Notes: generated from the sequence alone by a model not told the origin. 32,751 nt of DNA from a virus (IMGVR_UViG_3300045988_100063:1-32751); one strand, 5' to 3'; counted from the first letter of the stretch, positions 1 through 32,751 are shown. Numbers and translations: made by a program.

Positions 1-533
1 TCTGTATCACACACGCTTTCTTTCCTCGTGTCAATGCTCAAAAGAAAGCCAATGATGATGGCATCCCACTTTTTGGGTGGCAATCAGACGGATGGCTGAC
101 CATGAGTAATACTCCAACTGTTCTCTATGATGACATTGTTAAATGGTTCATAGAGATGAGACAGAAAGGCTTCAAAATTGCTGCTGTCGGTATGGACAGG
201 AAATTTGGTAGAGAGTTCATGCTAAAAATGAAGCAAGCTAAATTCAAAATGATTGACCAGCCTCAGCTATTCTATTTGAAATCAGAGGGATTCAGAAGAA
301 TTGAATTGAAAGTGAAGAATAAAGAATTTTATTATGTGCATTCGGACGCTTATGAGTATTGTGTCAGCAATGTCAGAGCCATTGAGAAAGTAGATGATGC
401 TGTCCAGTATGAGAAATTGGACGGTGATGGCGGTACAGCAAGAATTGACTTGTTTGATGCGAGCGTTTTTGCTTGTATACAGGCACTTGCTAACCTTGGT
501 AAGAATAAGAATGTGATGGCTTACTTTGATTAG
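1..533 (+). CDS. terL: Terminase large subunit, C-terminal part (5'-truncated by the window; codon phase starts at base 3; continuation of 31508..32751 across the circular junction)
   Basis: The frame is open from base 3 to the stop at 531-533. Bases 1-55 duplicate 32697-32751, and the 31508 frame continues in phase (32798-31508 is divisible by 3). The joined product is 573 aa, a typical TerL size. Confidence 0.9.
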
Positions 534-553
534 ATAGAAAGGAGGTGAGAAAT

Positions 554-1756
554 ATGGGAATCTTTGACAAATTATTCAAGCGTGGAAAGTCTCAGACGAT
601 GTTCACAAGCTTTGGGAATTCAGATATGGGCATCATGTATGACGGTGATGGCTACATTCCACTGGCAAGAAATCCAGATGTGATCATGGCTGTCAATAAA
701 ATTGCTGACATGGTTTCAAATATGACAATTCAGCTTATGGAGAATACAAAATCCGGAGATGTACGAATCAAGGACGGGTTAGCCCGTAAGATTGACATCA
801 ACCCTTGTGATCACATGACACGGAAATCATGGATCTTCAAAATTGTCAGAGACTTGCTTTTGTTTGGTGATGGAAATTCTGTTCTACATGTGGAATATGA
901 CCCAATGACTGACTATATCAGCAATCTCAGACCATTCCCAATGTCGGAAGTGTCATTCAAGAGTAATGATCTAACATACATGATCCATTTCAGAGACACT
1001 GATTTCAATCCAGATGAGGTGGTCCACTTTGCCATCAATCCTGATCCAGACCGGCCTTATATTGGGACCGGTTTTAGATTGGCCTTGAAAGATATTGTGC
1101 GTAATTTGAACATGGCCACACAGACCAAAAAGGGCTTTATGAACGGAAAGAACGTTCCTAGCCTTATTGTGAAGGTCGATTCATCAAGTGAGGAACTTGG
1201 GACTGTTGAAGGTCGGGAAAAAATCGCTAAGAAATACTTGACAACAAGCCAGTCTGGTGAACCTTGGATTGTTCCTGATGCCTTGATGGAAGTGGAACAA
1301 GTGAAGCCATTGAGTCTGAATGACATTGCTTTGAATGAGTCAGTAGAAATTGATAAGAAAACAGTAGCTGGGATGTTAGGAGTTCCGGCTTTTGTGTTAG
1401 GTGTGGGAGATTTCAACAAAGAAGAATACAACAACTTTGTGAATACAACCATCATGAGCATCGCAACAACGATCACTCAGACGCTCACAAGAGACCTACT
1501 GACTTCAACCACACGCTACTTCAAATTCAATCCACGTTCATTGTATTCATACGACATCACAGAGCTTTCAACTGTTGCTCAACAAATGACCAACAGTGCT
1601 GCAATGCGTAGAAATGAGTGGAGAGATTGGGTTGGTATGACTCCAGATCCTGAAATGGATGAAATTATTGTTCTTGAAAACTATCTGCCACAAGGCGAGT
1701 TAGGCAATCAGAGCAAACTAAACAAGGAAGGAGGAAATGCCAGTGAAGAAACGTAA
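554..1756 (+). CDS. Portal protein, HK97-type
   Basis: About 400 aa, immediately after terL and before the prohead protease. GGAGG at 541-545 lies 8 nt upstream of ATG 554; the ORF track's GTG 545 overlaps the RBS. Confidence 0.88.
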   Translation: MGIFDKLFKRGKSQTMFTSFGNSDMGIMYDGDGYIPLARNPDVIMAVNKIADMVSNMTIQLMENTKSGDVRIKDGLARKIDINPCDHMTRKSWIFKIVRDLLLFGDGNSVLHVEYDPMTDYISNLRPFPMSEVSFKSNDLTYMIHFRDTDFNPDEVVHFAINPDPDRPYIGTGFRLALKDIVRNLNMATQTKKGFMNGKNVPSLIVKVDSSSEELGTVEGREKIAKKYLTTSQSGEPWIVPDALMEVEQVKPLSLNDIALNESVEIDKKTVAGMLGVPAFVLGVGDFNKEEYNNFVNTTIMSIATTITQTLTRDLLTSTTRYFKFNPRSLYSYDITELSTVAQQMTNSAAMRRNEWRDWVGMTPDPEMDEIIVLENYLPQGELGNQSKLNKEGGNASEET

Positions 1757-6391: not shown

Positions 6392-9300
6392 ATGGCCGGT
6401 AATATTAAAGGGATAAAAATTGAAATTGGTGGAGACACACAGCCCCTTCAAAATGCCCTTAAAAAAGTAAATTCAGCCTCTATTGAAGCAGCAAAAGAAT
6501 TGAAGAGCATTGACAAGGCTCTGAAATTTGATACAGGGAACGTGACCCTATTGGCTCAAAAGCAAGAAGTCCTTCAAAAGCAAGTCTCAACTACCAAGGA
6601 AAAGTTGGAAACATTGAGACAGGCACAAGCACAAGTTGAAGCTCAATTCAAAAGTGGTGACATTGGAGCTGATCAATACCGTGCATTTCAACGGGAAGTG
6701 GTCCAGACAGAAAACATCCTGAAAGGCTATGAGAACAAGCTTGAAAATGTCAATAAGGCATTGGACGGAAATGGGAATGCCACAAAATCCAACCGTGAAC
6801 AACTGAAAGAGCTTCAAAATGAGCAACAGCGTCTTGCCAGTGAAGGTGACAAAGTTGTCAGCTCATTCAAACTGCAAGAAAGCCAGATGGGTTCCAACGC
6901 TAGTGAAGCAGATAAGCTGGCACTTGCTGAACAGAAGATTGGGAAGCAAAGCGAGATTGTCGCACAACAGATCGAGAATCTTGAGAAACAGCTTGCTCTT
7001 GCAAAACAAGAATATGGCGAGAACTCAACAGAAGTCAATAAGCTAGAGACTCAACTGAATGAGTCCAAGGCTGCCTTCAACGGGCTTGCCAATGAAATGG
7101 AAAATCTTGGTGAGTCGGGAAAGAAAGCCAGTAGTGGTCTTGAAGAGACAAACAAGCTTCTGAAAGCTGAGTTACTGAATCAATTCTCTGAGAAGCTGTC
7201 TGAGATCAGTCAAAAGTTGGTTGATTTTGGGAAGAGCGCTCTAGATGCATTCCGTGAAATTGATGAGGGAATGGACACCATTGTCACCAAGACCGGTGCT
7301 GGTGGGAAAGCTCTTGAAGAAATGCAAGGCATTGCTAATGGCATAGCCACTGAGGTCCCTACTGATTTCAGCACCATCGGGAATGCGGTTGGTGAGGTCA
7401 ATACTCAATTCAAATTAACTGGAGACGCTTTGAAAGTGACTTCAGAAGACATGATCAAGTTTTCTGAGATCAATGGCACAGATGTCACTAATGCTACAAT
7501 TCAATCAAAGCAAGCTATGGAAGCCTATGGCTTATCTATTGATGACTTAACAGAGATTCTGGACAATGTAACCTATGTTTCTCAAGATACAGGGGTTTCT
7601 GTTGATGAGTTGATGAAAAAGGCAACTGATGGAGCGCCTCAAATCAAGATGCTTGGTCTTGAATTTGGCGAGGCAGTCACCCTTATTGGTCAATTCGAAA
7701 AAAACGGGGTGGATTCATCTTCAGCACTCTCTGGACTGACAAAGGCTGCTGGTGTATATACCAAGCAAGGAAAGACCATGAAGCAAGGTCTGAATGAGAC
7801 CATTGAAGCCATCAAGAACAGCAAGTCAGAGACCGAAGCGATGGGAATCGCTATGGAGATCTTTGGTGCTAAGAAAGCCCCTCAAATGATTGATGCAATC
7901 AAACGTGGGAAATTCAACATGGAAGATTTAGGCTACACTTCACAAGTGTCAGCCGGTCTGGTTTCTCAAACTTACGAGAACACCCTAGACCCCATTGACA
8001 AGTTCACCACAGCACAAAACGGTTTGAAAATCGTTATGGCTGAAGTTGGTGGAGCAATTGCTGAAACATTCGCACCAGCCCTTGACATCATTGTAGATAT
8101 CTTCAAGAAGGTAGCAGAATGGATCAACAACTTGCCGGGACCAATCAAGAACTTTGTTGTAGTATTTGGATCAATTGTGACTGTGGCCGGTGTACTTGCG
8201 CCCATCTTCCTTGCCCTTCAAGCTGCCGCTGTGGCTGTCGGAACGAGTATAGGAGGGCTGATAGCTGCTGCATTGCCAATCATTGCGGTGATCGCTGCTG
8301 TTGTTGTCGCAGTAACCGGAATTGTATTGGCCATCAAGCACTTGTGGGAAACCAATGAGGGATTCAGGACCGCTGTTGAGACAGTCTGGAACGCTATCAT
8401 GTCAGTCATCAACACTGTTGTCAAAGCTATCTCTGACTTTGTAATGCAAATTTGGGGAACGCTGACAAGTTGGTGGAACGACAATCAGCAATTGATCAGA
8501 CAGACAGCAGAAACAGTCTGGAATGCTATTTCAGCAGTAGTGACAACGGTCATGAATGTTCTTGGTCCATTTATTCAAACGGCATGGAATAACATTTCAA
8601 CGGTAATTTCTACGGTCTGGGAGACCATCAAAACCGTTGTTGAAACAGCCATCAACGTGGTATTAGGCATCATTAAGACTGTGATGCAGATAATCAATGG
8701 TGATTGGTCGGGAGCTTGGGAATCTATCAAAGGTATTGCTGAAAGTATCTGGAATGGTATCAAGAGCATTGCTGAATCTGTATTCAATGCGATGGCTCAG
8801 ATCTTATCTAACATCTGGAATACTATTTCAAGCACTGCATCAAGCATTTGGAACGGCATCAGCTCTACCCTATCAGGTATCTGGAATGGAATTTCAAGCA
8901 CGGTCTCAAGTGTATTCAATGGGATTTCAAGCACGATTTCAGGGATCTGGAACGGTATCAGCTCAACTGCATCAGGAATCTGGAACGGGATCAAAGACAC
9001 CATTGGCGGTGCTATCAATGGAGCCAAAGACCTAGTAGGAAAAGCCATTGACGGAATTAAAGGTTTCTTCAATTTCCAATTCAAATGGCCACACATCCCA
9101 CTACCTCACTTTAAGGCCAGCGGGTCACTGAACCCAATGGACTGGCTGAAAGGTAAAGGAATTCCAAGTATTGGCATTGAATGGTATGCCAAAGGTGGGA
9201 TCTTAACCAAGCCCACAGCATTTGGCATGAACGGGAATAGCCTGATGGTTGGTGGGGAAGCCGGAAAAGAAGCAGTCCTACCACTGAATGAACGTAACTT

Positions 9301-9484
9301 GAGCGCCATTGGTCGGGGCATCGCCCAAACAATGGACCCACAAGGAACCGTGATCAACATCAACATCTCTGACAACATCATCAGAGAAGAAGCTGATATT
9401 GAGAAGATCGCCAATAAGGTATCTCAGAAGATAGCTGCTGAACTCAGGAGACAGAAAGAATTGAGAGGAGCGCCCGCATGGTAA
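6392..9484 (+). CDS. Tape measure protein
   Basis: 1030 aa from ATG 6392 (AGGAGG 5 nt upstream). It has N-terminal coiled coils, a hydrophobic core (residues ~580-650), W/F-periodic repeats, and the C-terminal 'GGEAGKEAVLPL' motif common in Gram-positive phage tape measures. Confidence 0.92.
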   Translation: MAGNIKGIKIEIGGDTQPLQNALKKVNSASIEAAKELKSIDKALKFDTGNVTLLAQKQEVLQKQVSTTKEKLETLRQAQAQVEAQFKSGDIGADQYRAFQREVVQTENILKGYENKLENVNKALDGNGNATKSNREQLKELQNEQQRLASEGDKVVSSFKLQESQMGSNASEADKLALAEQKIGKQSEIVAQQIENLEKQLALAKQEYGENSTEVNKLETQLNESKAAFNGLANEMENLGESGKKASSGLEETNKLLKAELLNQFSEKLSEISQKLVDFGKSALDAFREIDEGMDTIVTKTGAGGKALEEMQGIANGIATEVPTDFSTIGNAVGEVNTQFKLTGDALKVTSEDMIKFSEINGTDVTNATIQSKQAMEAYGLSIDDLTEILDNVTYVSQDTGVSVDELMKKATDGAPQIKMLGLEFGEAVTLIGQFEKNGVDSSSALSGLTKAAGVYTKQGKTMKQGLNETIEAIKNSKSETEAMGIAMEIFGAKKAPQMIDAIKRGKFNMEDLGYTSQVSAGLVSQTYENTLDPIDKFTTAQNGLKIVMAEVGGAIAETFAPALDIIVDIFKKVAEWINNLPGPIKNFVVVFGSIVTVAGVLAPIFLALQAAAVAVGTSIGGLIAAALPIIAVIAAVVVAVTGIVLAIKHLWETNEGFRTAVETVWNAIMSVINTVVKAISDFVMQIWGTLTSWWNDNQQLIRQTAETVWNAISAVVTTVMNVLGPFIQTAWNNISTVISTVWETIKTVVETAINVVLGIIKTVMQIINGDWSGAWESIKGIAESIWNGIKSIAESVFNAMAQILSNIWNTISSTASSIWNGISSTLSGIWNGISSTVSSVFNGISSTISGIWNGISSTASGIWNGIKDTIGGAINGAKDLVGKAIDGIKGFFNFQFKWPHIPLPHFKASGSLNPMDWLKGKGIPSIGIEWYAKGGILTKPTAFGMNGNSLMVGGEAGKEAVLPLNERNLSAIGRGIAQTMDPQGTVININISDNIIREEADIEKIANKVSQKIAAELRRQKELRGAPAW
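8813..8999 (+). repeat. About six tandem 33-nt (11-aa) coding repeats, IWNGISST(x)SG, inside the tape measure
   Basis: Units start at 8813, 8846, 8879, 8912, 8945 and 8978. Looser W-x10 periodicity extends upstream to about 8380. Confidence 0.9.
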
Positions 9485-10203
9485 AGTACAATGAATTGAT
9501 AATTGATGGAGTCGGAACTTCATCATTTCCATTTGATGTGATTGTGCTGGAAGGTCCTACAATTCAAGTAGGTCTCTCAAAGGACAAACTTTTGAGTCAT
9601 GATGGAGTTAGTGGATATATTGTTCAGTCGAATCCTCACAGAGAAGCGATTGAAAAGAAATACACTCTTCAACTCATCAACCCAACAGAATTGCAAGTCC
9701 TTGAATTCGTTCAATTCCTTTCCAAAAGGAATTTCTGGCTTGAGAATCAACAGAACAAGCTCACAAGATGGTTCTGTTATCAGACAAAGGTGTCTGACAC
9801 TCAGAGAGATAAAACTAAACTGTATTCTGTGGAAGTGACATTTGTTTGTCACCCCACAAAATACATGAAGAACAACGATGTTCAAACTCTTTCCTCAAAT
9901 GGTGTTCTCAGGCTCCAAGGTAGCTCACTAGCGTTCCCTAAAATCACAATAAGAGGAAATAGCTCATCTGAGACCAGCTTCACGATTGGGAAGCAAACCA
10001 TCAAGCTTGAGCAGCTATCTGATAGCGCTGTGATGGTGAATGATCCACAGAATCCAAGTTTCTTGGACAAGAAAGGAAATCTGGTGAAGTGGTCAGGAGA
10101 TTTCATCACAATTGACGCTAACCAAGGTCAAAAGACTGTTGGTGTGGTTTTAGGACCAGGTATTCAATCACTTGTCTTTGAAACTAATTGGGGGTGGTTA
10201 TAA
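9478..10203 (+). CDS. Distal tail protein (Dit)
   Basis: 241 aa, immediately after the tape measure (7-nt overlap) and before the Tal-like gene. Confidence 0.75.
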   Translation: MVKYNELIIDGVGTSSFPFDVIVLEGPTIQVGLSKDKLLSHDGVSGYIVQSNPHREAIEKKYTLQLINPTELQVLEFVQFLSKRNFWLENQQNKLTRWFCYQTKVSDTQRDKTKLYSVEVTFVCHPTKYMKNNDVQTLSSNGVLRLQGSSLAFPKITIRGNSSSETSFTIGKQTIKLEQLSDSAVMVNDPQNPSFLDKKGNLVKWSGDFITIDANQGQKTVGVVLGPGIQSLVFETNWGWL

Positions 10204-18115: not shown

Positions 18116-19198
18116 TTAAAAATCTATATAATTAGCAAATTTCTCACCAATATCATCCTTGGCTTGCTTGGTGATATGTGTGTAGACATTCATGGTTGTC
18201 TTGAGATCACTGTGTCCTAGTCGATGCTGGACCTGCTTCAATGTCATTCCAGCTTCAAAGCATAGGCTGGCATGCGTATGCCTAAAACCGTGAATCTTGA
18301 TAGGTCTGACCTCAGTCCCTTTTACAATCTGCAAAAGCCATTTTCTTGGTAGTGAACTTGGAATTGGCTTTCCTTCAGGACTTTCAAAAATGAAAGTGGT
18401 AGTAGGATTCATTTCTCTGTACTCTGATAGTAGATCAATTGTCCTTTGATCAAGGCTAATCAGTCGGACACTACTCTTGTTTTTAGTAGCTCCCACAGAT
18501 TCGCCCTCAAAACCTCTTGTAATGGCCTTGTTTATGTTCAAGGTGTTATCTATCCAGTCAGTCCATTTGAGAGCTAAAATCTCCCCTTTTCTGGCTCCTG
18601 TGAACGCAAAAAGACGAAACATGACTTTCTTTCTCAGATCATCCGTACCATCCACTAATCTCATGAATGCTTTTAACTCATCTTTATCATAAAAATCACT
18701 AGAAGAATCACTCTCTTTTTTGACAAGAGTGGTGACACTATCAACAGGATTGGTTGAAATATAACCATAACGGATGGCATATTTGAAAATATTATTCATT
18801 AAACCTTTCAACTTCCGCCCATACACCAATTTTCTGGACCATTCATTGACCTGTTCCTGCAATTGAAGAGGAGTGATGGAAGCTATTTTTTGACTACCAA
18901 AAACAGGATAGATGTGATTTTTGATATTTCTTTCAGTCTTGATGTAAGTGCTATCCTGAACGGTATCAGCGTACTCTTTGAGCCACTTCTTTGCGATTTC
19001 CTCAAATGTGATATCTTTTTGGGATTGTTCCCCATTTTCCAAATCGTCCTGAAGTTGTAAGAGTGCCACCCGTGCCTTTGCTTTGGTTGGAAATCCTTGA
19101 CGCTTGACATACTTATCTTTTCCGTTTTCTTTACCTACATAGATCCTAAATCCGTAGGCTGTATCACCATTCTTCTTTTTATAAGATTTTATTTCCAT
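18116..19198 (-). CDS. int: Tyrosine integrase (full-length: arm-binding, core-binding and catalytic domains)
   Basis: 360 aa. The N-terminal 'YKKKNGDTAYGFRIYVG' is arm-binding-like. Catalytic residues sit in 'TGARKGE', 'HGFRHTH' and 'LGHSDLKTTMNVYTH'. Confidence 0.95.
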   Translation of the reverse strand: MEIKSYKKKNGDTAYGFRIYVGKENGKDKYVKRQGFPTKAKARVALLQLQDDLENGEQSQKDITFEEIAKKWLKEYADTVQDSTYIKTERNIKNHIYPVFGSQKIASITPLQLQEQVNEWSRKLVYGRKLKGLMNNIFKYAIRYGYISTNPVDSVTTLVKKESDSSSDFYDKDELKAFMRLVDGTDDLRKKVMFRLFAFTGARKGEILALKWTDWIDNTLNINKAITRGFEGESVGATKNKSSVRLISLDQRTIDLLSEYREMNPTTTFIFESPEGKPIPSSLPRKWLLQIVKGTEVRPIKIHGFRHTHASLCFEAGMTLKQVQHRLGHSDLKTTMNVYTHITKQAKDDIGEKFANYIDF

Positions 19199-19321: not shown

Positions 19322-19816
19322 TTAATTATTAAGTATCTTCATCTTGCCACCATGCTCTTGAGCAATTGTTGTTTTATCTGCATCAGAAACTTTAACTATT
19401 AATTCAGGAGTATCTTTCTCTGGGTTAATTTTATAGTTGTTTTCTTTTGCCCATTTTTTAAACAGCTCATTTTTTTGTTTAAGAAATGAATTAGCAAGAT
19501 AGATTTTACGACTTGTACTTTCAGCACTCCACGATTCTCCAACACGGACAGAAACAGCAGTAGCATTTCCACCTGTAACAAATTCGATTTTATCACCATT
19601 GTCCAAGACTTCCGCATTTTCTCGTAAATAAATTGCGAACTCTTCCCCAAGCTTATCCGTCATTTTAAAAGTGTTGTTTTTAATAGTAGCAGACTTTTCT
19701 GCACTACTTGTAGTTTTTGATTTTGGTTTAGTTAGAGAGCTTATACCGCCAATAACAACCAAAATAATAAATATTATAAACCAAACTTGTTTATAAAAAG
19801 GCTTACTTTTTTTCAT
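19322..19816 (-). CDS. Membrane-anchored protein, candidate superinfection-exclusion (Sie-like)
   Basis: 164 aa with a single N-terminal TM helix (VWFIIFIILVVIGGISSL) and no lipobox Cys. Located between int and the ImmA/cI pair. Confidence 0.7.
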   Translation of the reverse strand: MKKSKPFYKQVWFIIFIILVVIGGISSLTKPKSKTTSSAEKSATIKNNTFKMTDKLGEEFAIYLRENAEVLDNGDKIEFVTGGNATAVSVRVGESWSAESTSRKIYLANSFLKQKNELFKKWAKENNYKINPEKDTPELIVKVSDADKTTIAQEHGGKMKILNN

Positions 19817-19829
19817 TAGATCCTCCTAT

Positions 19830-20210
19830 TTAACTAATTAGTGAATTAAACTCGTCTTTAACCATCGTTTCATTTGCGATGGTCTTCAGACTGTATTTTT
19901 CCATAAAATGAAGATAATTAAAATCCCTAATATCATCCATTAGCTTCAATTCTTCTTCAAGCAAATGATGAATCATGCTTCTATCAGCTTGTAATTCGCA
20001 AAGCTCTCTATTCAATTCATATTGAACAGGAGTGTGTTCTTTATGACCTAATTCATGAAGAGCTACTTGTTTTTGATCTTCCACCGACAAATTAATATCC
20101 AGGGCTAGAATATTAAGAGCAGGATTGAAAAATCCAGGGCTGTGCCAATTACTTCCGTCAAAGTAGCAGAGATTTACACCTTCTTTGGCACAAAGCTCTT
20201 GTACTGTCAT
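19830..20210 (-). CDS. ImmA/IrrE-family zinc metalloprotease
   Basis: 126 aa with an 'HELGH' motif, directly downstream of and co-oriented with the XRE repressor. Confidence 0.85.
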   Translation of the reverse strand: MTVQELCAKEGVNLCYFDGSNWHSPGFFNPALNILALDINLSVEDQKQVALHELGHKEHTPVQYELNRELCELQADRSMIHHLLEEELKLMDDIRDFNYLHFMEKYSLKTIANETMVKDEFNSLIS

Positions 20211-20221
20211 ATAATGTACCT

Positions 20222-20566
20222 CTATTTATTTTTTAAATGAGCCTCAAGGACAGCAGTGATGAAATCAATATCTTCTTCGGTCAATGGCTTTCCATCAAAC
20301 AGCATGGATTGAGCCGCAATATCACGCAGATCCAATGGTGCAGAAGCATCACCATCGTTTGCGACATTCGGGTTATCAGTTCTTCCCAATAAGTAGTCTG
20401 TAGAGACATTGAAATAATCAGCAACCTTTTCTATTTTATCACCGCTAGGCATAGAGGTTTCCCATTTTCTTAAACTACCATTGCTGAAATCTAGCTTTCT
20501 TTCCAGTTCAGCCATGGTCATTTGATGAGTAGCTGCCAATAACTTGATTCTATCAAGTAGACTCAT
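20222..20566 (-). CDS. cI-like XRE-family HTH repressor
   Basis: 114 aa with an N-terminal HTH (MTMAELERKLDFSNGSLRKWE). Divergent from the cro-like gene. Confidence 0.85.
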   Translation of the reverse strand: MSLLDRIKLLAATHQMTMAELERKLDFSNGSLRKWETSMPSGDKIEKVADYFNVSTDYLLGRTDNPNVANDGDASAPLDLRDIAAQSMLFDGKPLTEEDIDFITAVLEAHLKNK

Positions 20567-20602
20567 TTTTTCCTCCTTTTTTTAAAAAAACTTACAAAAA
20601 TG

Positions 20603-20813
20603 TAAAATTTTCTATTTTATCTGTTGACAAGAGGAAAATTTTCTATTATACTATTCTTGTAAGTTAAATTAAAAGCTATAAATAAGTTTTACAAATATCA
20701 ACGTGGTCCGCCAAGACAGTAGATATCAAAACCTATTTAGTAGTGTTCTTTTCTATACCCTAATAGTAGAATATTTTCTATTATTTGTCAATAAAAAAAG
20801 ATAATTTTCTTAT
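20603..20813. promoter_or_regulatory. Genetic switch: four copies of a GAAAATTTTC-like palindromic operator
   Basis: taaaattttc 20603-12, gaaaattttc 20634-43 (perfect palindrome), gaatattttc 20769-78 and gataattttc 20800-09. Each is followed by tatt or ttat. Confidence 0.6.
20624..20652 (+). promoter_or_regulatory. Sigma-70-type promoter (rightward, early lytic)
   Basis: TTGACA (20624-29), a 17-nt spacer and TATACT (20647-52). The second operator copy lies in the spacer. Confidence 0.6.
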
Positions 20814-20840
20814 AAAATTTTCCAAAGAAAGGAGAAAAAG

Positions 20841-21026
20841 ATGCTATATGACAAAATTAAAAAAATAGCAAAAGAAAACAATATTTCTATTTATCGAATA
20901 GAAAGAGATCTGGATCTTAGCAATGGAAGCATCAGAAAATGGAATTCGAGCATTCCGCTTTCCCAAACATTGAATAAGGTCGCCAAATATCTTGGTGTAT
21001 CAATCAGCGACTTGATGGAGGAATAA
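20841..21026 (+). CDS. Cro-like XRE HTH protein
   Basis: 61 aa HTH ([21 protein letters not shown]), first rightward gene. AGGAG lies 7 nt upstream. Confidence 0.8.
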
Positions 21027-21027
21027 A

Positions 21028-21774
21028 ATGAATGAGATTTTTAATTTTAACGGAAAACAGGTCCGCACAATAATCTTAAACAGTGAACCTTATTTTGTTG
21101 GAAAAGATGTTGCGGATATTTTGGGATATTCAAGAGCAGACAACGCAATAAGAAGTCATGTTGATGATGATGATAAGCTAACGCACCAATTTAGTGCATC
21201 AGGTCAAAATCGAAATATGATAATCATTAATGAATCAGGTTTGTATTCTCTAATATTAGCAAGCAAATTACCACAAGCGAAAGAGTTCAAAAAGTGGATT
21301 ACAAGTGAAGTCCTGCCAGCAATACGGAAACACGGGGGCTACTTGACAGATAGGATGATTGAACAAGCCTTGCTAAATCCTGACACTATTATCAAATTAG
21401 CAACAGATCTGAAGCAGGAACGTGAAAAAAGTAGCCGTTTGGAAATTGAGTTAGAACAAGCACAGGAACAGGCACGCTACTTGGATTTAATTATTGAAAG
21501 CAAATCCGCTGTGGTTATCACCCAAATAGCTGCTGACTATGGAATGAGCGCCATTAAATTCAATCAACTCTTGTATTCTCTAGGCATCCAACACAAAGTT
21601 AATAATCAATGGATTCTATACAGAAAATACATGGCCAAAGGATACACAGATAGCAAGACGATTGAAATCTCTGGTAGGGTCAGAATGCAGACAGTATGGA
21701 CTCAAAAAGGCCGGCTGTTCTTGTATGAACTATTGAAAAAACATGACATTCTACCATTGATTGAACAGGAGTAA
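21028..21774 (+). CDS. Antirepressor (Bro-N domain plus KilAC/ANT C-terminal domain)
   Basis: '[30 protein letters not shown]' is a Bro-N signature. The C-terminal half is KilAC-like. Confidence 0.85.
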
Positions 21775-21791
21775 CGGAAATATAACTAAAT

Positions 21792-21812
21792 AAAAAAGCC
21801 CATTCGTGGGCT
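21792..21812 (-). terminator. Terminator of the reverse-oriented DUF4145 gene
   Basis: AGCCCA / TTCG / TGGGCT hairpin. The T-run follows the stem only on the - strand (A6 at 21792-97 on the + strand). Confidence 0.7.
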
Positions 21813-21832
21813 GTGAGTAATTGGTTTAAAAG

Positions 21833-22567
21833 TTATGAATCTCTCCTTTCAATAGATTGTAGAATTGATTCTGGCAAATTATTATATACTTCATTAATCC
21901 TTTTTTGTTGGCTAATTTGGTTCTCAACAATTAAATTAATAAAATCTAGTAAAGAAGAAGCAAGTTGAGCATTATCTGACAGGTCTATTTCTCCCGGATG
22001 AACAGCATTGTTTCCAATTACTCTGACACTATCAAGCATTTGTTGAATTCGTGCTGATAACCCTTTTGAAACAAGATCGGCAATTTTTAAATTCAAATTG
22101 CTCCCTTCAGCTTCTAAGTGGTCAACTAATTTTTCTATTGCTAAACGTGAGAGAGCAGCAGAAGATCTAGGAGAATATTTTAAAACGAGACAAGCCTCAT
22201 CATATATTTTCTTAACATCTTCCGGCATATCTTCATTTGCTTTTGGAAGATCAGGACTAGTGAATGGATATAAAAGAATTTCTGAAGAATCATCTCCTGA
22301 AAATGTGCTGGGATTAGAAACGGTATTTTTCAATTTCTCTGTTAACCAAATGGAAGTTTTTAAACAACCTTGACATCTTGCAAAAATTACATATCTGCTT
22401 TCTTTAATTTTATCTAGACCCATCATATCACCATCAAAAAGTTCCATTTGCATGTATCTCCAATCATGAGTTGCCACCCCATTACAATAAGGACAAATAA
22501 AGGAACGGGAGTGAAAACCTTCGTTATATGTATAGCTAGTAATTTTATTGTTATCAAATTTTTGCAT
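21833..22567 (-). CDS. Zinc-ribbon + DUF4145 (HEPN-like) protein; candidate prophage-encoded defence/abortive-infection effector
   Basis: 244 aa with an N-terminal CPYC...CQGC four-Cys cluster. The C-terminal helical domain contains '...AALSRLAIEKLV...' and 'DSVRVIGNNAVHPGE', as in DUF4145. It has its own RBS (AAGAGG), an extended -10 and a terminator. Confidence 0.75.
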   Translation of the reverse strand: MQKFDNNKITSYTYNEGFHSRSFICPYCNGVATHDWRYMQMELFDGDMMGLDKIKESRYVIFARCQGCLKTSIWLTEKLKNTVSNPSTFSGDDSSEILLYPFTSPDLPKANEDMPEDVKKIYDEACLVLKYSPRSSAALSRLAIEKLVDHLEAEGSNLNLKIADLVSKGLSARIQQMLDSVRVIGNNAVHPGEIDLSDNAQLASSLLDFINLIVENQISQQKRINEVYNNLPESILQSIERRDS

Positions 22568-22594
22568 AGCAACCTCTTATGTGTTTTTACATTT

Positions 22595-22603
22595 ATTATA
22601 TCA
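22595..22603 (-). promoter_or_regulatory. Extended -10 (TGATATAAT on the - strand) for the DUF4145 gene
   Basis: The reverse complement of attatatca at 22595-22603 is TGATATAAT. It lies about 28 nt upstream of the ATG at 22567. Confidence 0.5.
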
Positions 22604-22620
22604 AAAATTGAAAGGACGTG

Positions 22621-22929
22621 ATGAAAATGATGCAGTATCCTATTCTAAATCAAATAACTCAAACTCATAACGAGAACTATATTAATCAACTTTTTGAAGA
22701 ACTCGTATCTCTTAATATTAAAGCTATGGAAGAAGCTAAGCGCATAACAAGCAGACAGATTACCTGGGTGTCCATCAAAGAGCTGCAAGCATCTACTGGT
22801 TGGGGCAGAACCAAGCTTGAAGAATGGCGTGATCAAGGGAAATTTCAATTTCAACAGTCTGGGAAAGGCGGAAAGTATCTGTATAATTTGGAAGATGTTC
22901 AGCGATTCTGTCGAAGCTTGCAAAAATAA
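22621..22929 (+). CDS. Excisionase-like / MerR-type HTH DNA-binding protein
   Basis: About 102 aa. 'WVSIKELQASTGWGRTKLEEWRDQGKF' resembles excisionase-family HTH_17. The start is ambiguous (GTG 22618; ATG 22621, 22627 or 22630). Confidence 0.55.
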   Translation: MKMMQYPILNQITQTHNENYINQLFEELVSLNIKAMEEAKRITSRQITWVSIKELQASTGWGRTKLEEWRDQGKFQFQQSGKGGKYLYNLEDVQRFCRSLQK

Positions 22930-22999
22930 AAAAAGCGCCTTTAGAAAGGCACTTTGAAAGAACTATAAACTAATTATAACACAATTTGAAGGAGAAGAA

Positions 23000-31507: not shown

Positions 31508-32751
31508 GTGGAGAAAGCTAAAAAATACGCTCAACACGTTCTGGACCATCAAGAAGAGCATTGTGAAGAAAACATTCTGGCAGCATCACGCTTCCTGAAA
31601 GATTTAGACAATCCAGAGTTTGAGATGGATGAAGACATGGTTGATTTTGTTGTCCATTTCATCGAACACACAATTGTCCATCAGCAGGGTGATGATATGT
31701 TTGCGGTCTCTATCCGTAACAAGCCCTTGTTACTTCAACCGTGGCAACATTTTGTTGTGGTCAATCTCTTTGGCTTCTACATCAAGGGAACGAATGAGAG
31801 ACGTTTCAAAGAAGCCTTGATCATGCTTGCCAGAAAGAATGGCAAGACTTCCTTCACTGCCGCAATCGCTTTGGCTTATCAGATTCTTGATACAGATAGC
31901 GGTTCAAAATGCTATATTGTAGCCAATTCTGTCAAGCAAGCCTTGGAAGCCTTTGGATTCTTGAGGTTCAATGTTGAGCGATGGAATGACAAGAACATCC
32001 GTATCAAAGATAACAACCAAGAACACTCCATCACTGCCAATTTTGGCAAGGAGGGTTCATTTTTCATCCAAGCACTAGCCAATGATGAAAGCCGGCTTGA
32101 CTCTCTCAATGGGAATGTCATCATCCTAGATGAGGCACATACCATGAGGAACTCCAAGAAATACGGTCTTATGAAAAAAACAATGTCAGCATACCGGAAC
32201 AGTATGCTTTTTGTTATATCCACAGCCGGGGACATTCCAACAGGCTTCCTTGCTAACCGTCTGAAATACTGTCAGAAAGTGCTGAAAGATTTAGTCAAAG
32301 ATGATTCATTCTTCATCTTTATCTGTAAGGCAAATCAGGCCACTGATGGAGATGTGGGAGACTACTTGGATGAGAATGTGTTGAAGATGGCTAATCCGTC
32401 ATGGGGTGTGACTGTCTCACTAAAAGCCCTCAAGGAAGAAGCAGAACAAGCTTTGAATGATCCACAGACCAGAAATGAGTTCTTCAATAAGACACTGAAT
32501 GTCTTCACCAACTCAATGAACGCTTATTTCAACCCTGATGAGTTCATTGCTAGTGATGACTGTTATGACTGGACAATTGAGGAGCTTGCAAGGCTTCCTA
32601 TTCGATGGTATGGAGGAGCTGACCTCTCAAGACTGCATGACTTGACCGCTGCTGCCCTCTATGGTGTATATAACGATGGTAAAAAAGATATTGATATCTG
32701 TATCACACACGCTTTCTTTCCTCGTGTCAATGCTCAAAAGAAAGCCAATGA
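31508..32751 (+). CDS. terL: Terminase large subunit, N-terminal part (3'-truncated by the window; continues at base 56 after the 55-bp overlap)
   Basis: GTG 31508 lies 1 nt after the terS stop. Walker A is 'ARKNGKTS' and Walker B is 'VIILDE'. The frame is open to the window end. This ORF is missing from the track because it has no stop in the window. Confidence 0.9.
   Translation, partial: MEKAKKYAQHVLDHQEEHCEENILAASRFLKDLDNPEFEMDEDMVDFVVHFIEHTIVHQQGDDMFAVSIRNKPLLLQPWQHFVVVNLFGFYIKGTNERRFKEALIMLARKNGKTSFTAAIALAYQILDTDSGSKCYIVANSVKQALEAFGFLRFNVERWNDKNIRIKDNNQEHSITANFGKEGSFFIQALANDESRLDSLNGNVIILDEAHTMRNSKKYGLMKKTMSAYRNSMLFVISTAGDIPTGFLANRLKYCQKVLKDLVKDDSFFIFICKANQATDGDVGDYLDENVLKMANPSWGVTVSLKALKEEAEQALNDPQTRNEFFNKTLNVFTNSMNAYFNPDEFIASDDCYDWTIEELARLPIRWYGGADLSRLHDLTAAALYGVYNDGKKDIDICITHAFFPRVNAQKKAN
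32697..32751. repeat. 55-bp exact duplicate of bases 1-55 (circular-closure overlap)
   Basis: Base-by-base comparison shows identity. It lies inside the terL coding sequence. Confidence 0.95.

Follow-up and report, generated by a model that had tools for sequence, protein, structure and literature searches.

A minus-strand gene in the early operon carries its own predicted expression signals

We analyzed a stretch of viral DNA of 32,751 nucleotides (IMGVR_UViG_3300045988_100063:1-32751; hereafter “the window”, meaning the whole stretch), which comes from a temperate Streptococcus (parasanguinis-type) siphophage. The gene considered here, at 21833..22567 on the minus strand, very likely encodes a homologue of RAZR (PD-T7-4) and is carried as an accessory “moron” of the phage, with its function assigned by homology at 40% identity. 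A first-pass annotation, made from the sequence, had pointed to a reverse-oriented gene within an early operon otherwise oriented on the plus strand. The open reading frame (ORF) was confirmed, with 244 codons before the stop, and is the only minus-strand gene of that operon. The gene, its signals, and the parts of its predicted product are as follows.

21833..22567 (stop codon included), minus strand: RAZR/PD-T7-4 homologue gene, ATG start, 244 aa; matches in PADLOC, Pfam, PDB, and PHROG
22573..22578, minus strand: Shine-Dalgarno sequence AAGAGG, read from the sequence, 5 nt before the ATG
22595..22603, minus strand: TGATATAAT, putative promoter element of the extended -10 type, 27 nt before the ATG, from the sequence and its recurrence in homologue loci
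21787..21812, minus strand: intrinsic-terminator-like hairpin with U-tract, unidirectional, from a scan and a fold
22340..22510, minus strand: N-terminal Cys4 zinc-ribbon domain, about aa 20-76 (C25, C28, C65, C68), the presumed trigger sensor, from the alignment and an AlphaFold2 (AF2) model
22238..22339, minus strand: variable loop (aa 77-95, low predicted local distance difference test [pLDDT] score), then a conserved linker (P101 ... N111-x-D113-M114-P115), from the alignment and pLDDT
21836..22237, minus strand: C-terminal DUF4145/HEPN RNase domain with C-terminal helices, aa 111-244, from Pfam and the alignment; RNase by homology

The ribosome-binding site, extended -10 element, and minus-strand terminator that the first-pass annotation had named were each recovered at their places by sequence, scan, and fold. 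The terminator-like hairpin has a 6-bp stem with four GC pairs and a 4-nt loop at 21812..21797 (minus strand), followed by UUUUUUAUUU in the scan; its minus-strand fold has an energy of -8.8 kcal/mol (z = -2.46), and the U-tract is absent when the plus strand is read. A generic scan for sigma-70 -35/-10 pairs called no promoter for the gene and found no good -35, so that the promoter can only be a site of the extended -10 type. The case for the putative promoter consists of the extended -10 element itself and of similar elements at homologous loci: in 19 of 25 Bacillota loci whose upstream DNA has little else in common, TGnTA..[AT]T stands 22-30 nt ahead of the predicted start and a Shine-Dalgarno sequence falls between the two. 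Since many of the loci are relatives of one another, the counts are not independent; the chance expectation, estimated roughly from base composition, is about 2% per locus.

The extended -10 element adjoins the 5′ end of a divergent Xis-like ORF, whose first possible start is GTG 22618 and whose start as placed by gene callers lies 9 nt downstream of that GTG. We rejected an antisense ORF at 22098..22373 (plus strand), which lies wholly inside the RAZR homologue gene and is left uncalled by gene callers in homologous loci. An Rfam search returned no RNA element at the locus, its sole match in the window being a tRNA elsewhere. Altogether, the predicted signals support autonomous expression of the RAZR homologue, presumably in the lysogen.

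The predicted protein matches the RAZR (PD-T7-4) family through both domains

The PADLOC profile for PD-T7-4 (PDLC04109) matched aa 15-244 of the protein to positions 6-208 of its 211 (E = 1.1e-64, 215.7 bits). The C-terminal DUF4145 domain proposed by the first-pass annotation was found by the Pfam hidden Markov model (HMM) PF13643 at aa 124-199 (E = 5.7e-17, 62 bits against a cut-off of 23.1). Searched as a single sequence against PDB, the protein matched 9y9c chain OA, a “DUF4145 domain-containing protein” present in 24 chains (E = 2.2e-34). With a profile built from 25 Gram-positive homologues, the match to 9y9c ran as one stretch over residues 8-208, included both CxxC knuckles, and reached E = 9.9e-56. 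An NCBIfam search returned nothing meaningful for this protein. Overall identity to the E. coli protein (RAZR-Ec) is 40%; it rises to 47% (46.7%) for the HEPN part and falls to about 33% for the alignable residues of the zinc finger.

The sequence-level features that define RAZR/PD-T7-4 are all present, namely the family match, the Cys4 cluster, the linker, the catalytic R-x7-H, and the single-gene organization. The N-terminal four-Cys cluster seen in the first pass consists of CPYC (C25/C28) and CQGC (C65/C68), which stand in register with C16/C19/C49/C52 of RAZR. The peptide RVIGNNAVH, earlier read as one residue longer than the HEPN Rx4-6H motif, is indeed R182..H190, i.e., R-x7-H, the catalytic spacing of RAZR, with R182/H190 aligned to the catalytic R146/H154. 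For the HEPN superfamily (Pfam clan CL0291), whose motif is R-x4-6-H, a spacing of x7 lies outside the canonical range, and the fold match is weak; the spacing is the same as that of the validated RAZR. The first-pass grouping of DUF4145 with HEPN-type domains, fused with restriction and abortive infection (Abi) genes, agrees with the literature, which places DUF4145 in the HEPN superfamily and reports fusions to restriction enzymes, Abi modules, and zinc ribbon (Anantharaman et al. 2013, PMC3710099).

We compared residues across 73 homologues drawn from many phyla, Bacillota, Bacteroidota, Pseudomonadota, and Actinomycetota among them. No exception occurs in the 73 sequences at the four Cys, at the Pro of the linker (P101), or at R182, G185, N186, and H190, although the invariance of G, N, and H190 is partly built in because the loci were recruited by the peptide patterns GNNAVHPG or [AS]SAALSRLAI; the Cys residues and R182 lie outside both patterns. 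The four Cys are likewise invariant in the 25 Gram-positive homologues. Within the linker, the D113 position is D in 69/73 and the M114 position is M or L in all 73. Variation is highest in the zinc-finger domain (ZFD): among homologues that are 71-74% identical, 25-32 of its 57 positions (44-56%) differ, compared with 6-9 of 90 (7-10%) in the HEPN core. This difference supports, at the level of sequence, a division into sensor and effector.

The AF2 model (mean pLDDT 79) has a confident helical C-terminal domain and a three-stranded, zinc-ribbon-like sheet (beta-strands 34-44, 54-65, and 71-76), with the zinc ligands assigned by sequence; loop residues 82-88 fall below a pLDDT of 50. A Foldseek search against BFVD matched two unnamed viral proteins (E = 1e-11 and 2e-4).

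The family to which the gene is assigned has a published mechanism

PD-T7-4 has been renamed RAZR, for ring-activated zinc-finger RNase, and the complex of RAZR with Gp77 is PDB entry 9y9c (Zhang et al., Nature 2026; PMC13017515). According to that study, RAZR is a single-gene abortive-infection system that is non-toxic when overproduced alone, and its R146A and H154A substitutions abolish defence. Its triggers, each necessary and sufficient, are the Erf-like Gp77 of SECphi27 and the portals of T7, T3, and SECphi18, and the zinc-finger domains bring 24 protomers together around rings of about 170 Å. The activated enzyme cleaves single-stranded RNA (mRNA, tRNA, and rRNA) non-specifically, leaves double-stranded RNA and DNA uncut, and blocks translation. 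The ZFD sets specificity and, of all regions in the family, varies most; the inter-domain linker packs on the HEPN domain and is required for function; and residues R29, Y31, R35, T41, and E43 of RAZR-Ec contact Gp77. Self-immunity follows from the enzyme remaining inactive until it is assembled on a foreign ring. These steps were established for E. coli and Klebsiella proteins, and homologues in Gram-positive bacteria were already noted (PMC13017515). As such, the two-domain family, with its name and its experimentally determined mechanism, is already known, and the gene described here adds another member.

This background bears on two earlier statements. The suggestion of a prophage-carried, single-gene zinc-ribbon and DUF4145/HEPN effector of abortive infection is supported by the PADLOC and 9y9c matches given above. 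The statement that trigger and self-immunity are unknown no longer holds for the family, for which ring triggers (in E. coli) and ring-dependent activity are described.

The closest characterized relative is RAZR/PD-T7-4 of E. coli UMB1727 (PDB 9y9c; Vassallo et al. 2022, Zhang et al. 2026). Both proteins combine a Cys4 zinc ribbon, a linker, and a C-terminal DUF4145/HEPN domain with a catalytic R-x7-H, and both are encoded by a single gene on a mobile element, with no antitoxin. The E. coli protein has 219 aa, whereas the one here has 244 aa, about 20 of them inserted behind the ZFD (the low-confidence loop, aa 77-95), and a longer inter-knuckle hairpin; the contact residues and D180/R184 (here N216/Q220) are not kept. 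The settings also differ. PD-T7-4 homologues in E. coli “often overlap an integrase gene”, whereas the present gene lies in the early operon of a temperate siphophage of a Gram-positive host.

Canonical HEPN toxins and RNases (the HEPN-MNT toxin 7AE6/7AE8, HepS of Gifsy-1 [9OIJ], and Abi_2/AbiD-F) share a HEPN-like, alpha-helical fold, in which a single helix carries the catalytic Arg and His, and, like the RAZR family, serve as toxins or in abortive infection. They differ in having R-x4-6-H rather than R-x7-H, their structural similarity to the protein here is weak (template modelling [TM] score about 0.45, E > 0.05), and they are controlled by a minimal nucleotidyltransferase (MNT) antitoxin or by nucleotide signals, whereas RAZR proteins are controlled by assembly on a foreign ring and have no MNT antitoxin. 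The neighbours of the gene are an antirepressor gene (ant) and an Xis-like helix-turn-helix (HTH) gene, both on the opposite strand. In line with the first-pass annotation, we found no MNT-type or other antitoxin ORF beside the gene in the window or in the homologous loci examined. A type II HEPN-MNT toxin-antitoxin system is therefore ruled out by the lack of an adjacent MNT gene. Nor is there a conserved partner gene of another kind, since the neighbours differ between lineages.

Proposed action and trigger specificity of this homologue

By homology, we infer the same mechanism for this protein as for the RAZR proteins of E. coli and Klebsiella. The homologue would be made in the lysogen and held as an inactive oligomer. 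A superinfecting phage would then make a large ring protein, either a portal dodecamer or the ring of an Erf-like recombinase. Binding of the zinc-ribbon domains around its circumference would give a curved assembly that sets the HEPN dimers into active sites. The active enzyme would cut mRNA, tRNA, and rRNA non-specifically, translation would stop, and the infection would abort, which would protect the population of lysogens and, with it, the prophage. An antitoxin would be unnecessary, because activity would depend on a foreign ring.

The trigger itself probably differs from that of the E. coli protein. The inter-knuckle hairpin, which holds the Gp77-contacting residues in RAZR-Ec, has 36 residues rather than 29 (7 more) and is largely unalignable; a different trigger is probable because this hairpin is longer and fast-evolving and its contacts are not conserved where alignable. 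Plausible sources of triggers are streptococcal siphophages.

Transcription may also bear on self-immunity. Since the terminator-like hairpin is unidirectional and the scan found no plus-strand promoter between the RAZR gene and the Xis-like ORF, transcripts from the early cro promoter probably read antisense through the RAZR gene. We speculate that such read-through in the lytic phase damps or silences RAZR when the gene's own phage is induced.

A stronger proposal, which we regard as doubtful when taken as a whole, is that the Gram-positive, phage-borne RAZR clade is a variant form. It would have a different sensor (the longer hairpin and the insertion of about 20 aa) and a different oligomer interface lacking the D180/R184 salt bridge. 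It would perhaps sense SPP1/HK97-type portals or Erf/Sak rings of rival streptococcal phages, and convergent transcription from the cro promoter, to which the conserved counter-orientation of the gene would expose it, would silence RAZR on induction and provide self-immunity, sparing the phage from its own portal ring.

Observations that weigh against the assignment, and alternative explanations

Several observations weigh against the assignment of the gene as a RAZR homologue with the RAZR mechanism. First, the function is read from homology at 40% identity. Second, PHROG places the protein in family 1305 (phrog_1305, E = 2e-38), which is labelled “DNA binding protein”. Third, the structural searches gave little. 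The first-pass annotation had proposed PADLOC and Foldseek searches; PADLOC, run on the phage proteins, returned PD-T7-4, and a Foldseek comparison of the full-length AF2 model with PDB produced nothing at E ≤ 0.001; 9y9c, whose membership of the searched library is not established, was not among the matches. Its top structural neighbours by probability were the HEPN toxins 7ae8/7ae6 (probability 0.82-0.94), which are weak matches; the top matches by E-value, HAT1 and nucleoporins, were disregarded (TM about 0.15). Fourth, the Gp77-contact residues R29, Y31, R35, T41, and E43 are not conserved where they can be aligned. Fifth, the residues of the higher-order oligomer of RAZR-Ec, D179, D180, and R184, correspond to E215, N216, and Q220 here, and the geometry of ring assembly in this clade is unproven because the D180/R184 salt bridge is not kept. 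At the R184 position, Q is found in 52 of the 73 homologues and R in 4, and on this alignment the three residues mark the E. coli clade and do not define the family. Finally, a different validated system with the same two domain types, DS-38, exists, and its zinc finger is of another kind.

One alternative, which we consider improbable, is that the product is a phage-beneficial RNase or nucleic-acid-binding regulator that acts in the phage's own life cycle (in host takeover, in lysis-lysogeny control, or as a prophage-addiction toxin) and not in defence. The PHROG label fits such a role, as do the position of the gene in the regulatory/early region, beside cro, ant, and the xis-like gene, and the frequent binding of nucleic acids by zinc ribbons. 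However, a core function is argued against because the gene runs counter to the lytic operon and is absent from the two closest deposited phages (below). Homologues also occur in non-phage chromosomes of many phyla, the expected antitoxin of an addiction module is missing from either side of the gene, and family members have demonstrated anti-phage Abi activity while being non-toxic alone.

A second alternative, which appears slightly less probable still, is that the gene belongs to another zinc-finger and HEPN family of the DS-38 type, with only HEPN in common with RAZR, with the zinc finger used otherwise, and with no ring activation. DS-38 (found by DefensePredictor) is a validated zinc finger and HEPN system that is reported to align to PD-T7-4 in its HEPN domain only. 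The low identity of the ZFD to that of RAZR and the 7 additional residues between its knuckles are compatible with this explanation, as is the weak alignment of the ZFD to 9y9c by phmmer alone (5.7 bits). Yet both the PD-T7-4 HMM and the family profile run continuously through the ZFD with the four Cys in register, the linker (P101, D113-M114-P115) is kept, and high ZFD variability is a described property of RAZR homologues. The continuity of the alignment through the zinc ribbon argues for a protein of the PD-T7-4 type rather than the DS-38 type.

It is very improbable that the gene is a remnant, inactive or decaying, and now functionless: beyond the rarity of homologues in deposited phage records (below), nothing specific speaks for it, whereas the full-length frame is intact, the catalytic and zinc-binding residues are all kept, an identical protein recurs on many contigs, the promoter, Shine-Dalgarno sequence, and terminator are present as predictions, and the strong conservation of the HEPN core alongside a diversifying ZFD is the pattern of a gene under selection.

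A mosaic module holds the gene as an accessory cassette

Among deposited phages, the nearest are Javan371 and Javan372, prophages of Streptococcus parasanguinis, with about 91% identity in the flanks. Neither has a nucleotide match to window positions 20442..22692, which hold cro, ant, and the RAZR gene, and the RAZR homologue is absent from both. The region is therefore a mosaic module swap, with the RAZR gene an accessory cassette within it. A clean insertion of the single gene relative to Javan371 and Javan372 was rejected, as the whole cro-ant-RAZR segment is replaced instead. Among the matches listed, the closest genomic homologue is from S. parasanguinis, with 73% identity.

Homologues are widespread in bacteria. 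We found 966 at E ≤ 1e-5, with at least 526 species-level genome matches, including chromosomes of many phyla outside phages. The identical protein occurs on at least 23 independent metagenome contigs, and such recurrence speaks against a chance reading frame. By comparison, among 50,697 deposited phage records a homologue is present in only 9; 7 of the 9 are streptococcal, and the annotated ones, the Javan phage records included, all read “hypothetical protein”.

A single RAZR gene running counter to the early/replication operon recurs in independent prophage lineages of Bacillota. In S. anginosus prophages, the homologue (53% identity) lies one to two genes past the switch and shares its strand with cI and int. 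In an Enterococcus prophage, it stands beside a DEAD/SNF2-type helicase gene in the block of replication genes, and in an S. parauberis prophage between the helicase and the primase.

We made two further observations in the S. anginosus loci. An Abi_2 (AbiD/F-type HEPN) gene lies beside the integrase in five of the six RAZR-carrying loci shown (L009-L013, at about 9020-10100). ERF recombinase, which belongs to the class of ring that triggers E. coli RAZR, is encoded in three of the six; its presence alongside RAZR raises the question of self-compatibility.

These results offer a concrete and testable function for a gene that is labelled “hypothetical protein” or “DUF4145” in streptococcal phages, and they extend the RAZR mechanism, by homology, to temperate phages of oral and gut streptococci. 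They also raise the question of how a phage that carries RAZR and makes its own portal ring, and whose relatives also encode Erf, avoids self-activation on induction, i.e., whether through the specificity of the zinc finger or through transcriptional shut-off. The fast-evolving ZFD across near-identical phages provides a natural series for mapping trigger specificity.

Phage genome and gene neighbourhood

The two ends of the window (1-55 and 32697-32751) are an exact 55-bp repeat. This overlap indicates a circular assembly and therefore the complete genome, about 32.7 kb, of a temperate siphophage. The DNA is thus an excised or replicating form, more than an integrated prophage, so that the earlier description as a prophage holds as regards the temperate phage and not as regards strict integration. 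The genes and features that define the surroundings are as follows.

545..1756, plus strand: portal
18116..19198, minus strand: integrase
19322..19816, minus strand: lipoprotein of 164 aa resembling superinfection-exclusion (Sie) proteins, with an N-terminal hydrophobic segment and weak PHROG matches to superinfection exclusion (E = 1e-6 and 1e-4)
19830..20210, minus strand: ImmA-type metalloprotease
20222..20566, minus strand: cI-like repressor
about 20624-20791, both strands: divergent switch promoters
20841..21026, plus strand: cro-like
21028..21774, plus strand: Bro-N/ANT antirepressor (Ant)
22618..22929, plus strand: Xis-like HTH (phrog_5866, E = 5e-43; HTH_17/excisionase-like models)
downstream of the Xis-like gene, plus strand: small ORFs, DUF3310, single-stranded DNA-binding protein, DnaD-like replisome organiser, MazG-like protein, and orphan methyltransferase

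The Sie-like ORF is possibly a second anti-phage gene of the lysogeny module; PADLOC matched nothing for its product. Run on 10 further phage proteins, PADLOC found no other complete defence system and returned only the orphan methyltransferase and weak HTH matches. On a metagenome contig (L004, 32,745 bp), lysin and holin genes lie directly past the integrase.

Over the region of the Xis-like gene, the GenBank annotation of Javan371 and Javan372 has a minus-strand “hypothetical protein” (L001 5516-5824 and L002 5027-5335), whereas other gene callers choose the plus strand; the deposited annotation is probably on the wrong strand. Just past the Xis-like gene, at 22932-22990, there is a strong terminator-like hairpin on the minus strand (10 bp and a T-tract), with a promoter-like site at 22990..22962 (minus strand) immediately upstream of it. 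Either a bidirectional terminator or a fortuitous match may account for this hairpin.

Late in the early region, a tRNA-Lys (anticodon TTT) was found by both Rfam and ARAGORN at 28215-28289 (plus strand). A second integrase-like ORF, a short one at 28262..28873 (phrog_216, E = 1e-75), has its first possible start within the tRNA. The early region also encodes a MazG-like pyrophosphatase at 25828-26328 (plus strand) and the orphan DNA methyltransferase at 26802-27278 (plus strand; PADLOC oMTase, E = 9e-85; phrog_954), both of which are typical candidates for counter-defence functions of the phage.

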